Notes under the pieces: model-generated
Database searches by the model: none
What the model saw: the letters and a program-made list of their open reading frames with translations, nothing else
Told to the model about the DNA's origin: nothing
Position numbers and translations under genes: made by a program
In this document: positions 1-9,488 of the stretch, piece after piece
Position numbering within the stretch: position 1 is the stretch's first letter
How the letters are laid out: every line of letters begins with the position of its first letter
Source of the DNA: Naegleria gruberi
Taxonomy: Eukaryota
Length of the DNA: 9,488 nucleotides
Assembly: GCA_000004985.1 (NCBI GenBank)
Contig: GG739036.1
Strand: one strand, 5' to 3'

Positions 1-1289
1 AGATACATTTATTCACACTGATATACATCTGGTATCAATTTTAGTGTTTTAGAATTGAATTCAATATGATAATAATAACATTCTGTCAAATTGTCATATT
101 TCAACATATAGAATGAATACCATCTCAGTCAGTTTACAAAATATCATACTTGTATCAAATATGAATACACTTCCCTTGATGAGGAGAACAATCTGAGAAA
201 GTTTTATATTCATGGCAACATTCCATCTAAGGTAATCAAAAGGGAAGATTATACAAGAATAATACATTCAATTATTATATTCATGTCAGTAATCAGTGAA
301 GGTGACACTTCTTTCACCTTATACACATCTCAATATCTAGACTGTCTATTCCACTGAAACTTGAAATATTACCTATCTAGATGATATAATGATGACTCTC
401 CATAGTAACATACATGTGAAATTGAATATTGACACTTTTCATCTTGTTATATTTATAGAGATGGTATCCAACAGAGTCAGTTCACAATCTTAAATATTGA
501 AACTCATTCTGTATGACATACGTGATGTATAGAACGGTTTTTTTATTGAATGTAATCAGTTTGAAATAATTTGATGAAATTGACACTGTCTAATCACCTT
601 TACATGACAAATAGTCCATTGCTTACATTCCATCTCAGTCACTTCAGCGATTTATTGGTTAATTCCACCAACAGTATGTTTCTCATACATTTTAGTACAG
701 TTTATATTTCAAGAGTGATTTCTGTGTAGATTATTATAATCGTAATTCCATGCAATACCAATAAAACTCAGTAGAAGAGTTAATTCTTCTCATTTTCAAA
801 TAGATTATTCAATATAGAACACATCTAGATAGTTTCCAGATCATAAAAGTCAAGATACTATATATGGTCTTTGATTAAATTTAAAAATAGACTGCCGTTA
901 ATTACTGGAATATTAATATTCAAAGCTTGATGAGCAAGCTATTGATTGAAATCCAACCGATTATTGAATATTGATTATTGAATTGGTGAATAATCACTCT
1001 TGATAATGTTACTTATTCATATTGCATGCAAATCAACCTGATTCAATCTACTTCTCAAAGTCCATAATACAAAAGTTGATACTGACCTGACCTTTAAATA
1101 TCTGTCAATATAAGAAATGAAACCATCAAATTTACATCATTTATAGATGATAAGAAATATAATCAATGATATGAATCTTCACTAAGTAATCTATTAAATA
1201 ACCCAAATAAATCAATTCTGAATCCTAACCTTACACCTTTTATTTAATAAATATTAAATTTTATAAGGTTAATCTTTTCCAATTGATTC

Positions 1290-2357
1290 TTAAACAATTT
1301 GACAAATTAAAATCAAATCATGATATGATTTTGGGAATGGTTTGATTGGTGATTTCTTTCTTGGTGGTCCAATATGTGGATATTGTTGGAAATCAAATGG
1401 AACATCTCCTTCATATCCAAGTACATCTCCAATTCCAGCAATTATTTTCATATTTCCGTTCTTGAAAATCTTTCTTACGCAATGATTATAGTGGTCAGCA
1501 AAATAAACTTGATTTTTTGAATCAACAAATATTCCTGTTGGCCAACAAAGTTTTGTTCTTGTTGCTAATTTAAAATCTCCATTATATCCTTTTTTTCCTG
1601 GAATTCCTGCAATGTTTTTGATGATTCCATTGGGTAATATCTTTCTTATCACATGATTGTCTAAATCTGAAAAGTAAATTTCATCATTGTGAACAAAGAG
1701 AGAGTCAGGGTTGTTCAAACTTGTATCAGTGGCATTCCTTCTATCTCCATTGTATCCTTCAATTCCATTTCCTGCAATTGTGTGGATAATTCCATTTCTA
1801 TCAATTTTTCTAATCCTATTACTGAAGGAATCTGCAATGTAAATTTCATCTTTGTATTGAAATACACTACTAGGGTATCTCAATGAAGCCAATGTTGCCA
1901 ATTGATTATCTCCGTTGTATGTCATAATTCCATTTCCAGCAATTGTGCGGATGATGCCATTTCTATCAATCTTTCTCACACGATGATTTCTTTTATCACA
2001 AAATAATACTTCATCATTGTCAGTAATAAAAAGACCACAAGGAGAGTTCAATTTTGTATTTACAGCCAATTGATCATCTCCATTGTATTCTGTTTCATAT
2101 GTTCCGGCAATTTTTGAAATGATTCCAAATTCATCAATCTTGAAAATCAAATTACGTTCACCTTCCGAAATATAAACTTGATTTGATGATGAAACAACAA
2201 TAGAAGATGGATCATACAATGATCCACGCTCATTTCCTGCAATTGTTACAATTTGACCATTCCGAAGCAATTTTCTCACTCGATCATTACCCGTATCAGC
2301 AATAAATACTTCGTCATTTGAAACAAAAACGGCACTTGGACGATTGAGGTTTGACAT
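1290..2357 (-). CDS. Intact gene for an NHL-repeat six-bladed beta-propeller protein (355 aa). It has no N-terminal RING, B-box or coiled coil and no signal peptide.
   Basis: Single uninterrupted ORF with an ATG at 2355-2357 in an A-rich context (caaaaaaATGtc) and a TAA stop at 1290-1292. The translation contains six tandem units of about 47-55 aa, each of the form [PS]xx[IVL]FVxx(D/N)(E/Q)[IV][YF][IF][AS]DxxN(H/D)R[IV]RK[IL]xxNGxIxTIAG followed by a G(Y)NGDxxxAT..L..P linker. This is the NHL repeat signature (NCL-1/HT2A/LIN-41 family propeller). Blade starts in the protein: AVFVSNDEVFIADTGNDRVRKLL, SSIVVSSSNQVYISEGERNLIFKI, PCGLFITDNDEVLFCDKRNHRVRKI, PSSVFQYKDEIYIADSFSNRIRKI, PDSLFVHNDEIYFSDLDNHVIRKI, PTGIFVDSKNQVYFADHYNHCVRKI. 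On the minus strand, TTTATT/AATAAA lies about 45 nt downstream of the stop (plus coordinates about 1240-1252). Confidence 0.8.
   Translation of the reverse strand: MSNLNRPSAVFVSNDEVFIADTGNDRVRKLLRNGQIVTIAGNERGSLYDPSSIVVSSSNQVYISEGERNLIFKIDEFGIISKIAGTYETEYNGDDQLAVNTKLNSPCGLFITDNDEVLFCDKRNHRVRKIDRNGIIRTIAGNGIMTYNGDNQLATLASLRYPSSVFQYKDEIYIADSFSNRIRKIDRNGIIHTIAGNGIEGYNGDRRNATDTSLNNPDSLFVHNDEIYFSDLDNHVIRKILPNGIIKNIAGIPGKKGYNGDFKLATRTKLCWPTGIFVDSKNQVYFADHYNHCVRKIFKNGNMKIIAGIGDVLGYEGDVPFDFQQYPHIGPPRKKSPIKPFPKSYHDLILICQIV
1761..1813 (-). repeat. Copy 1 of an intragenic tandem DNA repeat: NHL blade 4 coding segment, about 89% identical to 1926-1978.
   Basis: aattccatttcctgcaattgtgtggataattccatttctatcaatttttct (1761-) aligns with aattccatttccagcaattgtgcggatgatgccatttctatcaatctttct (1926-), about 47 of 53 identical. 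The offset is 165 nt, i.e. 55 codons, exactly one blade. The encoded peptides are RIRKIDRNGIIHTIAGNGI versus RVRKIDRNGIIRTIAGNGI. Confidence 0.6.
1926..1978 (-). repeat. Copy 2 of the intragenic tandem DNA repeat: NHL blade 3 coding segment.
   Basis: See the partner repeat at 1761-1813. Nucleotide identity is far higher than between the other blades, implying a recent blade duplication or gene conversion. Confidence 0.6.
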
Positions 2358-3164
2358 TTTTTTGATGGTTGTGAACGAACCTGTTGATCATTCAATCCAC
2401 ATTTTTGAGTGTTGGATATATATTCTGTGAATGTTTGAATATTCTTCACAATCATCCCTTCACAAATACACCTTTACACTAATGAATCTGAATAGGAGGG
2501 AACACCAGACAATTAACTCTGTGCCCTGTAGAACTTTGATATATTTGAGTAAGATTCCATTGACAATGTGAAACAGTCAATCGCCTTTTCATAATCACAA
2601 GCATTCCTGTATGGCCATTCCATTAAGAAAATTGTAAAAGGATTTGATCTTCTCTTTTGTTCCCCAAATTGGATTAAGATTGACAATAGTCTTAATATTA
2701 ATATCTTTTGTTATATCTATAGAAGCTAATAGGTTCAAAGCAGAATGATTATTACCATTAGAAATATCAATCAAAGCCTTTACCAAAATACAAATCAACT
2801 CAACTTCTGGGCTACCGATTACACAACAAGTCAAGGTCCTTAATTGAATCAGTCAATGATAATGGAATATTAACGGAAAGCCTGTCAGGAATATGACGAC
2901 TATCCCGCGATTCATGTCATGGTATTTTGGAACTTGAAGTACATTAGACATCATAACGTAGTGTGTTGAATCTTCAGAGTAGTTTAAAAAAAGAATAATA
3001 CCATAATGAAGTGAATTTAAAACAAACTGAAGGTTAGAGAGCTTGTGAAATTGAATTGTATTTGAGGCATGTAGTGTAATTCTAACATCACGATCAGCTC
3101 ATTTCTCTGAAGTGTTGGTGGCGAAACTCCACCCATGCCTTTTTACTTCATGAAGTAAAAAAAA

Positions 3165-3827
3165 ATGTCTGAAGAAGTACGTTCGTGTAGTGTTTCCTTC
3201 TGTCATCGGTCAACCAAAACACTTGTCAGAAATGTCCGAATTCTACGTTGGAGATGAAGCTCAATCAAAACGAGGTCTATTAAATTTGAGAAATCCAATC
3301 AATCAAGGAATTGTCAATAATTGGGATGATATGGAAAGGATTTGGTTTCATACTTTTTACAATGAATTGAGAGTTGTTTTGAGGAATATCCAATATTGAT
3401 GAGTGAAGTTGCGTTGAATCTCAAGACAAATAGAGAGATGATGTCACAAGTCATGTTTGAAAAATTTTGTGTGCCAGCTCTGTATGTTGCTAATAGAGCT
3501 GTCTTGGCATTGTACGCTTCTGGAAAAAGTACTGGAATGATTGTGAATTCTGGAGATTCTGTCACTCATGCCGTTCCTATTTATGAAGGTCATACTCTGC
3601 CACATGCCATTTTGAAAATGGAAATGAAAATGTTAACAGAAAGAGGATACACTTTCACTAACACTGCTGAAAGAGAAATAGATCGTAAAGAAAAGCTCTG
3701 TTACCTTGCTCTCTATTTTCAAGAGGAAATGAATTCGGTTGTAAGAGAGGAACCAACCATTGATAGAAAATTGTATGATATACCAAAGGGTAATGTTGTC
3801 ACTCTTGGGAATGAAAGATTCAGATGA
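3165..3827 (+). pseudogene. Actin-derived pseudogene: N-terminally deleted, frameshifted, internally deleted and C-terminally truncated.
   Basis: ATG at 3165 in the context aaaaaaaaATGtct, reading MSEEV (compare actin M-x-DEEV). Frame +1 from about 3181 then reads [64 protein letters not shown], which corresponds to actin [69 protein letters not shown]. About 22 codons are missing ([22 protein letters not shown], the phosphate-1 loop), and the deletion length is not a multiple of three. At 3375-3380 'gtt gtt tt gag gaa' replaces the expected 6 nt for Ala-Pro, a 1-nt frameshift. Frame 0 then continues [117 protein letters not shown]...[12 protein letters not shown]. Relative to actin this lacks AGRDLTDYLM (10 aa) and VRDI is reduced to DR. 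A TGA at 3825-3827 ends homology at about actin residue 210, and no CPEALFQPSFLG follows. Confidence 0.75.
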
Positions 3828-3833
3828 ACATTT

Positions 3834-3839
3834 AAAAAA
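3834..3839 (-). terminator. RNA polymerase III oligo-T terminator of the 5S rRNA gene (T6 on the minus strand).
   Basis: The plus strand reads aaaaaa at 3834-3839, immediately 3' on the minus strand of the 5S end ...GCTGTAGTCTTTGC. A T-run of at least 4 on the coding strand is the canonical pol III termination signal. Confidence 0.55.
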
Positions 3840-3962
3840 GCAAAGACTACAGCACCACAGGTTCCCAAGTTGTCTCCAACCTCAGTACTGATGTGGCTCG
3901 ACGATGCTTAACTTCTCAAATCGGACGGGATGAGGTGTATTCATCGTGATATGGCCGTAGCC
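3840..3962 (-). rRNA. 5S ribosomal RNA gene, complete and about 120 nt long. Not in the ORF track.
   Basis: The minus-strand sequence is GGCTACGGCCATATCACGATGAATACACCTCATCCCGTCCGATTTGAGAAGTTAAGCATCGTCGAGCCACATCAGTACTGAGGTTGGAGACAACTTGGGAACCTGTGGTGCTGTAGTCTTTGC. It matches the eukaryotic 5S consensus throughout: the 5' GGCTACGGCCATA-CAC start, box A (GAAGTTAAGCA-CGTCG at about +45-62), box C (TCAGTACTGAGGTTGGAGAC...CTGGGAA at about +70-100), and the 3' GGTGCTGTAG-CTTT end. Helix I closes, with 5' GGCUACGGC pairing to 3' GCUGUAGUC through G-U wobbles. It is followed by an oligo-T terminator. Confidence 0.9.
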
Positions 3963-3985
3963 ATCATTTATCTTAATTCTTAGTA
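3963..3985 (-). promoter_or_regulatory. Conserved 5'-flanking block upstream of 5S copy 1, a possible upstream promoter element, with a TATA-like tract (TTTTTATAC) further upstream.
   Basis: On the minus strand, TACTAAGAATTAAGATAAATGAT sits immediately 5' of the 5S start. It is conserved in copy 2 with 2 mismatches in 23 (TACAAAGAATTGAGATAAATGAT), whereas sequence further upstream diverges by indels. TTTTTATAC lies at about -25 to -33 on the minus strand (plus coordinates about 3986-3995). That 5S genes in some eukaryotes use upstream elements is established knowledge; a function here is inferred. Confidence 0.3.
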
Positions 3986-4144
3986 TAAAAACAATCTCAT
4001 AACACTCATCAAGCAATTACTGATAATCCTTTATTTATTCAAAACCAATTGTTCAGCCACTGAATTTGTACTATCAATATGTTTCGTGTTTTAAAGTAAT
4101 TAAGGAAGGCGTGCTAATGTTGTTATCTTAATAAATGGGTTGAC

Positions 4145-4347
4145 CTAACATTTAAGTTTATCAAAAACCATCTTCCCATTTTGTGGTAAAGCTAATTCAA
4201 GTGCATTGAAACCCTTCGAATAAATCACCTTTTCTAATTTTGGTAATTTTAATAAAGATTCCAATCCAAACTGATCTATTTCAGCATATTTGATGGAGAG
4301 TTTCTTAATAGACTCAAATTTAGAGAAATGTTCTGCTAATTCATTGG
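4145..4347 (-). CDS. 3' end of a leucine-rich-repeat-like protein gene. It is partial, with the 5' part lost in the assembly gap.
   Basis: A 67-codon open frame on the minus strand ends at a TAG (plus coordinates 4145-4147). The translation (N to C) is ...NELAEHFSKFESIKKLSIKYAEIDQFGLESLLKLPKLEKVIYSKGFNALELALPQNGKMVFDKLKC*. It shows LxxLxxLxxL / LxL spacing typical of LRR or RNI-like C-terminal regions. The open frame is long for a sequence this AT-rich. The opposite-strand frame is full of TAA codons. Confidence 0.5.
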
Positions 4348-7300
4348 NNNNNNNNNNNNNNNNNNNNNNNNNNNNNNNNNNNNNNNNNNNNNNNNNNNNN
4401 NNNNNNNNNNNNNNNNNNNNNNNNNNNNNNNNNNNNNNNNNNNNNNNNNNNNNNNNNNNNNNNNNNNNNNNNNNNNNNNNNNNNNNNNNNNNNNNNNNNN
4501 NNNNNNNNNNNNNNNNNNNNNNNNNNNNNNNNNNNNNNNNNNNNNNNNNNNNNNNNNNNNNNNNNNNNNNNNNNNNNNNNNNNNNNNNNNNNNNNNNNNN
4601 NNNNNNNNNNNNNNNNNNNNNNNNNNNNNNNNNNNNNNNNNNNNNNNNNNNNNNNNNNNNNNNNNNNNNNNNNNNNNNNNNNNNNNNNNNNNNNNNNNNN
4701 NNNNNNNNNNNNNNNNNNNNNNNNNNNNNNNNNNNNNNNNNNNNNNNNNNNNNNNNNNNNNNNNNNNNNNNNNNNNNNNNNNNNNNNNNNNNNNNNNNNN
4801 NNNNNNNNNNNNNNNNNNNNNNNNNNNNNNNNNNNNNNNNNNNNNNNNNNNNNNNNNNNNNNNNNNNNNNNNNNNNNNNNNNNNNNNNNNNNNNNNNNNN
4901 NNNNNNNNNNNNNNNNNNNNNNNNNNNNNNNNNNNNNNNNNNNNNNNNNNNNNNNNNNNNNNNNNNNNNNNNNNNNNNNNNNNNNNNNNNNNNNNNNNNN
5001 NNNNNNNNNNNNNNNNNNNNNNNNNNNNNNNNNNNNNNNNNNNNNNNNNNNNNNNNNNNNNNNNNNNNNNNNNNNNNNNNNNNNNNNNNNNNNNNNNNNN
5101 NNNNNNNNNNNNNNNNNNNNNNNNNNNNNNNNNNNNNNNNNNNNNNNNNNNNNNNNNNNNNNNNNNNNNNNNNNNNNNNNNNNNNNNNNNNNNNNNNNNN
5201 NNNNNNNNNNNNNNNNNNNNNNNNNNNNNNNNNNNNNNNNNNNNNNNNNNNNNNNNNNNNNNNNNNNNNNNNNNNNNNNNNNNNNNNNNNNNNNNNNNNN
5301 NNNNNNNNNNNNNNNNNNNNNNNNNNNNNNNNNNNNNNNNNNNNNNNNNNNNNNNNNNNNNNNNNNNNNNNNNNNNNNNNNNNNNNNNNNNNNNNNNNNN
5401 NNNNNNNNNNNNNNNNNNNNNNNNNNNNNNNNNNNNNNNNNNNNNNNNNNNNNNNNNNNNNNNNNNNNNNNNNNNNNNNNNNNNNNNNNNNNNNNNNNNN
5501 NNNNNNNNNNNNNNNNNNNNNNNNNNNNNNNNNNNNNNNNNNNNNNNNNNNNNNNNNNNNNNNNNNNNNNNNNNNNNNNNNNNNNNNNNNNNNNNNNNNN
5601 NNNNNNNNNNNNNNNNNNNNNNNNNNNNNNNNNNNNNNNNNNNNNNNNNNNNNNNNNNNNNNNNNNNNNNNNNNNNNNNNNNNNNNNNNNNNNNNNNNNN
5701 NNNNNNNNNNNNNNNNNNNNNNNNNNNNNNNNNNNNNNNNNNNNNNNNNNNNNNNNNNNNNNNNNNNNNNNNNNNNNNNNNNNNNNNNNNNNNNNNNNNN
5801 NNNNNNNNNNNNNNNNNNNNNNNNNNNNNNNNNNNNNNNNNNNNNNNNNNNNNNNNNNNNNNNNNNNNNNNNNNNNNNNNNNNNNNNNNNNNNNNNNNNN
5901 NNNNNNNNNNNNNNNNNNNNNNNNNNNNNNNNNNNNNNNNNNNNNNNNNNNNNNNNNNNNNNNNNNNNNNNNNNNNNNNNNNNNNNNNNNNNNNNNNNNN
6001 NNNNNNNNNNNNNNNNNNNNNNNNNNNNNNNNNNNNNNNNNNNNNNNNNNNNNNNNNNNNNNNNNNNNNNNNNNNNNNNNNNNNNNNNNNNNNNNNNNNN
6101 NNNNNNNNNNNNNNNNNNNNNNNNNNNNNNNNNNNNNNNNNNNNNNNNNNNNNNNNNNNNNNNNNNNNNNNNNNNNNNNNNNNNNNNNNNNNNNNNNNNN
6201 NNNNNNNNNNNNNNNNNNNNNNNNNNNNNNNNNNNNNNNNNNNNNNNNNNNNNNNNNNNNNNNNNNNNNNNNNNNNNNNNNNNNNNNNNNNNNNNNNNNN
6301 NNNNNNNNNNNNNNNNNNNNNNNNNNNNNNNNNNNNNNNNNNNNNNNNNNNNNNNNNNNNNNNNNNNNNNNNNNNNNNNNNNNNNNNNNNNNNNNNNNNN
6401 NNNNNNNNNNNNNNNNNNNNNNNNNNNNNNNNNNNNNNNNNNNNNNNNNNNNNNNNNNNNNNNNNNNNNNNNNNNNNNNNNNNNNNNNNNNNNNNNNNNN
6501 NNNNNNNNNNNNNNNNNNNNNNNNNNNNNNNNNNNNNNNNNNNNNNNNNNNNNNNNNNNNNNNNNNNNNNNNNNNNNNNNNNNNNNNNNNNNNNNNNNNN
6601 NNNNNNNNNNNNNNNNNNNNNNNNNNNNNNNNNNNNNNNNNNNNNNNNNNNNNNNNNNNNNNNNNNNNNNNNNNNNNNNNNNNNNNNNNNNNNNNNNNNN
6701 NNNNNNNNNNNNNNNNNNNNNNNNNNNNNNNNNNNNNNNNNNNNNNNNNNNNNNNNNNNNNNNNNNNNNNNNNNNNNNNNNNNNNNNNNNNNNNNNNNNN
6801 NNNNNNNNNNNNNNNNNNNNNNNNNNNNNNNNNNNNNNNNNNNNNNNNNNNNNNNNNNNNNNNNNNNNNNNNNNNNNNNNNNNNNNNNNNNNNNNNNNNN
6901 NNNNNNNNNNNNNNNNNNNNNNNNNNNNNNNNNNNNNNNNNNNNNNNNNNNNNNNNNNNNNNNNNNNNNNNNNNNNNNNNNNNNNNNNNNNNNNNNNNNN
7001 NNNNNNNNNNNNNNNNNNNNNNNNNNNNNNNNNNNNNNNNNNNNNNNNNNNNNNNNNNNNNNNNNNNNNNNNNNNNNNNNNNNNNNNNNNNNNNNNNNNN
7101 NNNNNNNNNNNNNNNNNNNNNNNNNNNNNNNNNNNNNNNNNNNNNNNNNNNNNNNNNNNNNNNNNNNNNNNNNNNNNNNNNNNNNNNNNNNNNNNNNNNN
7201 NNNNNNNNNNNNNNNNNNNNNNNNNNNNNNNNNNNNNNNNNNNNNNNNNNNNNNNNNNNNNNNNNNNNNNNNNNNNNNNNNNNNNNNNNNNNNNNNNNNN

Positions 7301-8463
7301 NNNNNNNNNNNNNNNNNNNNNNNNNNNNNNNNNNNNNNNNNNNNNNNNNNNNNNNNNNNNNNNNNNNNNNNNNNNNNNNNNNNNNNNNNNNNNNNNNNNN
7401 NNNNNNNNNNNNNNNNNNNNNNNNNNNNNNNNNNNNNNNNNNNNNNNNNNNNNNNNNNNNNNNNNNNNNNNNNNNNNNNNNNNNNNNNNNNNNNNNNNNN
7501 NNNNNNNNNNNNNNNNNNNNNNNNNNNNNNNNNNNNNNNNNNNNNNNNNNNNNNNNNNNNNNNNNNNNNNNNNNNNNNNNNNNNNNNNNNNNNNNNNNNN
7601 NNNNNNNNNNNNNNNNNNNNNNNNNNNNNNNNNNNNNNNNNNNNNNNNNNNNNNNNNNNNNNNNNNNNNNNNNNNNNNNNNNNNNNNNNNNNNNNNNNNN
7701 NNNNNNNNNNNNNNNNNNNNNNNNNNNNNNNNNNNNNNNNNNNNNNNNNNNNNNNNNNNNNNNNNNNNNNNNNNNNNNNNNNNNNNNNNNNNNNNNNNNN
7801 NNNNNNNNNNNNNNNNNNNNNNNNNNNNNNNNNNNNNNNNNNNNNNNNNNNNNNNNNNNNNNNNNNNNNNNNNNNNNNNNNNNNNNNNNNNNNNNNNNNN
7901 NNNNNNNNNNNNNNNNNNNNNNNNNNNNNNNNNNNNNNNNNNNNNNNNNNNNNNNNNNNNNNNNNNNNNNNNNNNNNNNNNNNNNNNNNNNNNNNNNNNN
8001 NNNNNNNNNNNNNNNNNNNNNNNNNNNNNNNNNNNNNNNNNNNNNNNNNNNNNNNNNNNNNNNNNNNNNNNNNNNNNNNNNNNNNNNNNNNNNNNNNNNN
8101 NNNNNNNNNNNNNNNNNNNNNNNNNNNNNNNNNNNNNNNNNNNNNNNNNNNNNNNNNNNNNNNNNNNNNNNNNNNNNNNNNNNNNNNNNNNNNNNNNNNN
8201 NNNNNNNNNNNNNNNNNNNNNNNNNNNNNNNNNNNNNNNNNNNNNNNNNNNNNNNNNNNNNNNNNNNNNNNNNNNNNNNNNNNNNNNNNNNNNNNNNNNN
8301 NNNNNNNNNNNNNNNNNNNNNNNNNNNNNNNNNNNNNNNNNNNNNNNNNNNNNNNNNNNNNNNNNNNNNNNNNNNNNNNNNNNNNNNNNNNNNNNNNNNN
8401 NNNNNNNNNNNNNNNNNNNNNNNNNNNNNNNNNNNNNNNNNNNNNNNNNNNNNNNNNNNNNNN
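4348..8463. other. Assembly gap: 4116 consecutive N.
   Basis: Uninterrupted n from 4348 to 8463. The ORFs 4290..8513 (+) and 4341..8483 (-) in the supplied track are artefacts of translating N as X. Confidence 0.97.
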
Positions 8464-8526
8464 CGACGATGCTTACTTCTCAAATCGGACGGGATGAGGT
8501 GTATTCATCGTGATATGGCCGTAGCC
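8464..8526 (-). rRNA. 5S rRNA gene, second copy. It is partial: only the 5' 63 nt are visible and the 3' part is in the gap. It has a 1-nt deletion in box A.
   Basis: The minus-strand sequence is GGCTACGGCCATATCACGATGAATACACCTCATCCCGTCCGATTTGAGAAG-TAAGCATCGTCG. It is identical to copy 1 (3899-3962) except that GTTAAGC is reduced to GTAAGC. The gap edge cuts the gene at about nt 63. Confidence 0.8.
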
Positions 8527-8549
8527 ATCATTTATCTCAATTCTTTGTA
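8527..8549 (-). promoter_or_regulatory. Conserved 5'-flanking block upstream of 5S copy 2.
   Basis: On the plus strand, atcatttatctcaattctttgta matches atcatttatcttaattcttagta at 3963-3985 in 21 of 23 positions. Further out, aaacaacctcaaacaca and aaacaatctcataacac are related, but there are indels. Confidence 0.3.
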
Positions 8550-8773
8550 TTTAATTTTTAGAATAGAAACAACCTCAAACACATTACTTAATGTTAACCT
8601 TATGTTGAATCATATTAATGGTTCCTTAAAACCTAAAGCTTAATTTCATTGTTCTTAATTGCTCGGAATTGTATTATTCCCGCCAAAAGAAAACTCTGAA
8701 CATCCTACAAAAAAAATAGCACAACTCGACAACTTCACCAATACTGTATTAATACATTAAGGTTTGATGTAAC

Positions 8774-9488
8774 ATGACCGATCGAACAAACAAGAGAGTT
8801 CATGTTGAAGGCTTGCTGAAGAGAAAGATGATTGAGGAGACCTCACAATCTGATTCTCAATTCATCAAGGGAAGCAAGGGATCTTCAAGTTTCGCTCAAC
8901 CATCAACTCCCAAGTCAACCAGAAGGAAAATCAAACAAGACAATCGTAGCAATGATATGTTTACCATTCCTAACCAATTGAAGTCTGTGTTTTACTCTCA
9001 AGAAAATTCCTATCAACCAATAAGCCTCAACTCAAAATCTTCAAAGATATTTAATTCATCTTTGCCTCCAACCTTTGCAAACTTTGGAACGATTGAACAA
9101 TCAACTAATAATCCTTTCCAATTTTCAAATCCGAATAATAACTCTATACAATATTCAGAAGATGACATCTTCCGTCCTTCTGCTCAATCAACAACATTCA
9201 CTCCAAGCAAGAGAATTGATTCATCAAACAATTCTTCTCCATTCTTTAAGAGTGCAAACTCCTTTGATTCTGATTACAATCCTACACCATTCTCTCCAAT
9301 CAAAGCACAAGGAAATATCCATAAGAATAGCCTCTTCTCAAATACACAAGCCGGCAGCTGTGGTTCTTTCGAGTTCGAAGAGCAAATCAACCAACAGGCC
9401 CATCAACCAGATACGAAATTCAATCTTTTTAGGCAACAGCAACCCCGTGAGGAAGTCGATTTATTCTCTCCTTGCAACCAAATCGTAC
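8774..9488 (+). CDS. 5'-complete, 3'-open CDS (at least 238 codons) for an S/N/Q/P-rich low-complexity, likely intrinsically disordered, protein of unknown function.
   Basis: ATG at 8774 (gtaacATGacc). There is no stop codon in frame through the window end at 9488. The translation is MTDRTNKRVHVEGLLKRKMIEETSQSDSQFIKGSKGSSSFAQPSTPKSTRRKIKQDNRSNDMFTIPNQLKSVFYSQENSYQPISLNSKSSKIFNSSLPPTFANFGTIEQSTNNPFQFSNPNNNSIQYSEDDIFRPSAQSTTFTPSKRIDSSNNSSPFFKSANSFDSDYNPTPFSPIKAQGNIHKNSLFSNTQAGSCGSFEFEEQINQQAHQPDTKFNLFRQQQPREEVDLFSPCNQIV... It contains one NPF tripeptide and several PF/FxF motifs. It is not in the ORF track, probably because it runs off the window. Confidence 0.6.
   Translation, partial: MTDRTNKRVHVEGLLKRKMIEETSQSDSQFIKGSKGSSSFAQPSTPKSTRRKIKQDNRSNDMFTIPNQLKSVFYSQENSYQPISLNSKSSKIFNSSLPPTFANFGTIEQSTNNPFQFSNPNNNSIQYSEDDIFRPSAQSTTFTPSKRIDSSNNSSPFFKSANSFDSDYNPTPFSPIKAQGNIHKNSLFSNTQAGSCGSFEFEEQINQQAHQPDTKFNLFRQQQPREEVDLFSPCNQIV

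Follow-up and report, generated by a model that had tools for sequence, protein, structure and literature searches.

Two same-strand 5S rRNA genes beside an assembly gap on Naegleria gruberi scaffold_203, probably separate members of a dispersed, loosely clustered family

The stretch of Naegleria gruberi DNA analysed here, 9,488 nucleotides of GenBank contig GG739036.1 (assembly GCA_000004985.1; ‘the window’), carries two copies of the 5S ribosomal RNA (rRNA) gene, one complete and one half assembled, beside an assembly gap. With a probability of roughly 0.87, in our judgement, these are two separate, same-orientation members of the dispersed and loosely clustered nuclear 5S family of this species (approximately 280 copies), situated on scaffold_203. 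The window is scaffold_203 of the Joint Genome Institute (JGI) assembly, because the published 5S catalogue (PMC3369914, Table S1) places a gene at scaffold_203 3843–3959 and because a protein encoded in the window matches an N. gruberi protein at 100% identity. It consists of two contigs, 1–4347 and 8464–9488, with 4116 N between them (4348–8463), and the 4.56 kb between the two copies includes this estimated run of N. The features at issue are these, upstream positions throughout being counted from the gene start on the gene's own strand.

3844–3962, minus strand: 5S rRNA gene, copy 1, complete, 119 nt (Rfam RF00001, 106 bits, E = 4e-23, model positions 1–120).
3834–3839, minus strand: T6 run, presumed to terminate RNA polymerase III transcription of copy 1, read from the sequence, 5 nt past the 3′ end.
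4348–8463, no strand: assembly gap of 4116 N, which must hide the 3′ end of copy 2 (~56 nt) with its terminator and the upstream part of an LRR-like open reading frame (ORF).
8464–8526, minus strand: 5S rRNA gene, copy 2, first 63 nt of the RNA only (Rfam RF00001, 43.1 bits, E = 2e-7, model positions 1–65).

Both copies exceed the RF00001 gathering threshold of 38 bits; the match to copy 2 came from searching the right-hand contig alone, and gathering-mode scans of the whole window miss it. The minimum free energy structure of copy 1 is identical to its centroid structure and forms the canonical three-helix junction (Y shape; −41.2 kcal/mol, z = −3.1). On the gene strand its 3′ end reads ...GUAGUCU, followed by TTGC and then TTTTTT; RNA polymerase III (Pol III) terminates at T runs, the general rule on which the presumed function of this terminator is based. 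A TATA-like TTTTTATAC lies at −29 to −21 of copy 1 (3983–3991). Scored against the consensus strings quoted in PMC3369914, the internal control region (ICR) of copy 1 has an exact box A at +50 and a box C, with 2 mismatches, at +80, and the universally conserved GUUAAG motif of the loop B/box A region is intact. Copy 1 is entry R33356 (scaffold_203 3843–3959) among the 279 putative 5S genes listed for the JGI assembly by PMC3369914 (PLoS One 2012, Table S1), which describes an ICR, an upstream TATA box and T-run features for the N. gruberi genes and reports TFIIIB and TFIIIC, with no detectable TFIIIA, in this organism. Judged by its motifs and by what is generally known of 5S genes, copy 1 is presumably transcribed by Pol III.

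If this reading is correct, each copy would function independently as a Pol III type 1 gene, the ICR recruiting transcription factors, the TATA-like element near −25 helping to position TFIIIB/TBP, and a T run (for copy 1, the T6 run given above) ending transcription. The conserved unit comprises the gene and some 44–56 nt upstream of it, with unrelated DNA outside, and each copy sits in a short intergenic interval of its own, with protein-coding neighbours that differ between the two; copy 2 is the same kind of gene, half assembled, its contig starting inside it.

That the two copies have near-identical gene bodies and diverged flanks, about 4.56 kb apart, had been proposed in an earlier reading made from the letters of the DNA without database searches (the sequence-only reading), and its collinear match was reproduced: 3899–3985 (87 nt) aligns with 8464–8549 (86 nt) at 84 identical positions, with one 1-nt indel and two mismatches. 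A repeat search recovered the same relationship as an ungapped 76-nt direct repeat of 97% identity (3911–3986 against 8475–8550, spacing 4564 nt), and this 76-nt core is the only long repeat common to both contigs. Within the gene, the single-nucleotide difference proposed earlier is indeed one nucleotide, which can now be specified, over the first 63 nt, as a deletion in copy 2 between 8475 and 8476, turning GUUAAG into GU-AAG. Copy 2 is truncated at its 3′ side by the gap, with ~56 nt and the terminator inside the N run, and the deletion sits 12 nt from the contig edge, so that it may be an assembly error; it is either a base-calling error at the end of the contig or a defective variant, and should not be taken for a variant 5S before the reads are checked. 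The deletion's cause, like the real distance across the gap, is a part of this account that we infer.

Upstream of the gene, similarity is confined to two blocks.

3963–3986, minus strand: proximal upstream block of copy 1, −1 to −24, identical to copy 2 at 22/24 positions.
8527–8550, minus strand: proximal upstream block of copy 2, −1 to −24, identical to copy 1 at 22/24 positions.
3989–4005, minus strand: distal upstream block of copy 1, −27 to −43, GTGTTATGAGATTGTTT, aligning to 8567–8582.
8567–8582, minus strand: distal upstream block of copy 2, −41 to −56, GTGTTTGAGGTTGTTT, shifted by a 14-nt insertion relative to copy 1.

The TATA-like element of copy 1 overlaps the distal end of its proximal block, and copy 2 has a TATA-like TTAAATAC at −28 to −21 (8547–8554). 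The distal block follows the pattern GTGTT(A)TGAG(A/G)TTGTTT (17 nt, 15/17 identical) and is supported by a position-constrained test (p ~0.006 against shuffles), its score being reached by 0/348 real AT-rich segments of the window. Beyond both blocks the flanks give a local score of 18, compared with 15.5 ± 2.3 for shuffles, 62/300 of which equal or exceed the observed value; homology between the copies therefore ends ~44–56 nt upstream of the gene. The decay into indel-rich similarity that had been described for the flank thus holds for one further block, displaced by the 14-nt indel, and for nothing beyond it that improves on shuffled sequence. The blocks may have a promoter role.

The copies also differ in their next ORFs, as the sequence-only reading had noted in setting an LRR-like stop (4145–4147, minus strand) against an S/N-rich start (ATG at 8774, plus strand).

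4145–4347, minus strand: LRR-like ORF upstream of copy 1, C-terminal 66 codons and stop, from translation; continues into the gap.
8774–9488, plus strand: S/N-rich ORF, neighbour of copy 2 and divergent from the 5S gene, from translation; runs off the scaffold end.

The ATG of the S/N-rich ORF is 247 nt from the 5S start of copy 2, and this ORF matched no Pfam family. Nor did the LRR-like ORF at E ≤ 0.1, so that ‘LRR’ remains an impression gained by eye. Because similarity stops ~44–56 nt upstream and the adjoining ORFs are unlike in both sequence and strand, the copies are separate loci, and the earlier view that they are two genuine paralogues rather than an unmerged overlap is upheld, all the more as a multi-copy family is documented (PMC3369914). 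That a single 5S gene has been seen twice, as an unmerged overlap or as two haplotypes, with an artefactual gap, is very improbable: the right contig does open with the 84/87 match, and the sole difference within the gene is close enough to the edge for errors to be likely there, but the flanks beyond −44/−56 are no more alike than shuffles and are offset by a 14-nt indel, the next ORFs do not correspond in sequence, strand or distance, and hundreds of paralogues are on record.

The setting of the pair is ordinary for the family. Spacing statistics computed here by parsing the coordinates in Table S1 of PMC3369914 show the 279 copies spread over 117 scaffolds, with a median spacing of 34 kb between adjacent copies on the same scaffold; the smallest spacing is 462 nt and the next at least 1104 nt. 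Short-period tandem arrays are absent from these coordinates. Spacings of ≤5 kb are nevertheless frequent (32/162, compared with ~5.4 expected under uniform scatter), 62/279 copies have a neighbour within 5 kb, and loose pairs and triplets at 1–6 kb exceed the expectation from uniform scatter about six-fold. When copies ≤6 kb apart are linked, the family resolves into 207 singletons, 30 pairs and 4 triplets (34 clusters). Table 1 of PMC3369914 scores the N. gruberi arrangement as tandem, a label in conflict with that paper's own coordinates, which describe a dispersed family with loose short-range clustering. Since spacings of 1–6 kb are over-represented six-fold in Table S1, a same-strand pair ~4.6 kb apart is the ordinary local pattern of the N. 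gruberi 5S family. A rough hand count of copies near scaffold starts (5 within 300 nt, ~2–3 expected) was judged not significant and was not used.

A dispersed arrangement of this kind recurs in a related 5S lineage. A 28-nt 5S word, used in one metagenome scan, retrieved 11 contigs (L001–L011, from VFQM01 and VFQO01) of a eukaryote whose 5S genes are ~80% identical to those of N. gruberi, each contig, of 1.5–6.8 kb, carrying one 5S copy amid unrelated sequence; in L007 two long ORFs flank the gene, with 400 bp between them. GTTAAGC is kept in 11/11 of these relatives, a T run follows the gene directly (TTTTACT in most copies), and upstream conservation ends at ~−7, even between copies with identical gene bodies. 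An N. gruberi-specific 29-mer had no match in the genome contig database, and a 28-mer had none in viral contigs. As a separate observation, the relatives include at least four gene variants with compensatory changes in one helix (TTGCATAG...CTGTGCC, TTGTGTAG...CTGCACC, TTGCGTAG...CTGCGCC and TTGCTGAG...CTCAGCC).

Several points weigh against the view of the pair as two ordinary members of the family. The upstream comparison is between two copies, in which family-wide and pair-specific blocks look the same, and promoter constraint alone would predict less than a 24-nt block plus one of 17 nt, given that conservation in the relatives stops at ~−7. Copy 2 as assembled has no match to the box A consensus, and its box C falls within the gap. 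Finally, the 4.56-kb distance takes in a gap of estimated size and presupposes that scaffolding correctly linked a contig of 1025 bp that starts inside a repeat of ~280 copies. This last point bears on whether the copies are real paralogues that are not a local pair at all, the short contig having been misjoined or the gap (4116 N by estimate) wrongly sized. We consider this unlikely: mate-pair links normally rest on unique sequence, and 962/1025 bp of the right contig lie outside the 5S gene; pairs 1–6 kb apart are common, as the 32 spacings of ≤5 kb against 5.4 expected attest; and the extra upstream similarity between copies 1 and 2 fits a local relationship.

That extra similarity raises the question of descent. 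The pair, or a small subfamily, may share the upstream blocks because a small 5S cassette with its promoter, from ~−44 to the terminator, was recently duplicated over a short range, a proposal that refines the explanation favoured here rather than competing with it, and which we entertain tentatively, as plausible but short of being the favoured origin. Upstream identity of ~90% (22/24 and 15/17), with indels and an abrupt end, is what a decaying duplicate with a sharp boundary would look like; neighbours 1–6 kb apart are in roughly six-fold excess genome-wide; and identical gene bodies in the metagenome relative share nothing upstream beyond ~−7. Set against this, part of the upstream block is probably constrained, because a TATA box is reported upstream of N. 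gruberi 5S genes (PMC3369914), the comparison covers two copies, and copy 1 bears neither a target-site duplication nor a tail. The longest word common to both of its flanks is 5 nt, a length equalled by 364–415 of 500 shuffles, and its flanks hold no A-rich tail, and it thus bears no mark of transposition. A simple tandem duplication is not what is seen, because an unrelated coding ORF lies between the copies.

On its 3′ side copy 1 adjoins the remains of an actin gene.

3165–3827, plus strand: actin relic, neighbour of copy 1 and converging on the 5S gene (Pfam Actin, E = 1.6e-53; tblastn).

The tblastn comparison with an actin query shows the relic to span actin residues 28–256. It retains the initial MSEEV, lacks residues 6–27, is frameshifted near residue 98, carries two internal deletions and breaks off after GNERFR, its homology stopping 19 nt short of the copy 1 gene's 3′ end. 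Its amino-acid identity to NAEGRDRAFT_60876, a divergent actin of 362 aa encoded on a 310-kb N. gruberi scaffold, is 86%, and the only other close N. gruberi protein match is an annotated 128-aa ‘predicted protein’ model (P0122) within the window itself. Because this is the sole truncated model of its type among N. gruberi proteins, the relic is a one-off truncated duplicate of a single divergent actin gene and is not seen co-repeated with 5S. Neither the visible window nor the surroundings of the 5S genes in the metagenome relatives contain a second actin piece, and the earlier suggestion that the gap might conceal another actin fragment is not favoured, there being a single parent actin and one truncated model, which is already in the window.

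More speculatively, Naegleria 5S genes may spread as self-sufficient DNA cassettes of ~170–180 bp (~45–55 nt of upstream sequence with the promoter, gene and terminator) by ‘local hopping’, preferentially to sites a few kb from existing copies, one such insertion or rearrangement having cut the actin duplicate 19 nt from the 5S terminator. The boundary at −44/−56, the six-fold excess at 1–6 kb, the unique genes between pairs and the actin breakpoint are all compatible with this, and no signature of transposition was found; we regard it as an outside chance.

Elsewhere in the window, an intronless gene at 1290–2357 (minus strand) encodes a 355-aa NHL-repeat (beta-propeller) protein that matches a predicted protein of N. 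gruberi at 100% identity; its DNA has internal repeats with a period of 165–171 nt, and the protein has thousands of homologues, among them many from ENA metagenome assemblies at 55–61% identity, which appear to form a large family in related amoebae. The ~1.3 kb at 1–1289 and the ~0.8 kb at 2358–3164 are AT-rich, with no long ORF on either strand and no match to an RNA family or transfer RNA (tRNA). Linkage of 5S to other RNA genes was not apparent, with no tRNA genes and no other Rfam match at E ≤ 0.1 in 1–4347; to the right of the gap are two small nucleolar RNA-like matches far below threshold (E of 0.5–1).

The gap itself lies 385 nt to the right of copy 1 and directly abuts copy 2. The sequence-only reading held that the 5S repeat was a likely cause of it, a claim that now appears weak. 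Only the right-hand contig, of 1025 bp, ends inside 5S; the left one continues for 385 nt beyond copy 1 and stops within a coding ORF. The 5S repeat is only ~120–170 nt, and the 2010 N. gruberi assembly was presumably built from long capillary reads, far longer than such a repeat. The short right contig suggests thin coverage as readily as repeat trouble. Most 5S copies did not break the assembly, because scaffolds numbered below 100 carry 239/279 of those catalogued (PMC3369914, Table S1). Additional 5S units within the gap are possible, although not the default, since the published table yields 4 triplets and 30 pairs. A newer long-read assembly of N. gruberi was not found in the literature, and a recent comparative paper (PMC11702301) still works from GCF_000004985.1.

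Two known arrangements were rejected. Classical tandem 5S arrays, as in Xenopus, human, Trypanosoma cruzi and Trichomonas vaginalis, resemble the window in the gene, its internal promoter and the head-to-tail orientation. The window, however, has no constant short unit and no homologous spacer: homology ends 44–56 nt upstream, the 76-nt core is the sole shared repeat, a coding ORF lies between copies spaced ~4.6 kb apart, and short-period arrays are missing genome-wide. Short interspersed elements (SINEs) derived from 5S, and retroposed 5S pseudogenes, likewise place short 5S-containing units at many scattered sites. A retroposon or SINE of this kind was rejected for copy 1, which is full length and canonical and has no tail, target-site duplication or foreign 3′ module. 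RNA-mediated copying does not fit, because the copies share untranscribed upstream sequence, the gene is full length, and there is neither tail nor target-site duplication.

Within the N. gruberi family as published (PMC3369914), copy 1 is listed and the ICR, TATA and T-run features are alike, whereas the half copy at 8464–8526 is absent from Table S1. The pair is thus a known, ordinary part of a catalogued housekeeping gene family, and its biological weight is small, amounting to the re-finding of two members of a multi-copy family in the 2010 assembly. In practical terms the half copy adds to the published 5S list, and the short-range clustering, if followed across all copies, could show how dispersed 5S families grow. 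Among the closest parallels are the dispersed 5S genes of Neurospora crassa, Schizosaccharomyces pombe and Acanthamoeba castellanii, in which many copies with a conserved gene body are scattered between protein-coding genes, each with a short upstream segment bearing a TATA-like element near −25 to −30 and with otherwise unrelated flanks. Naegleria differs from these three in its lineage, Heterolobosea, and in the significant clustering of its copies at 1–6 kb.

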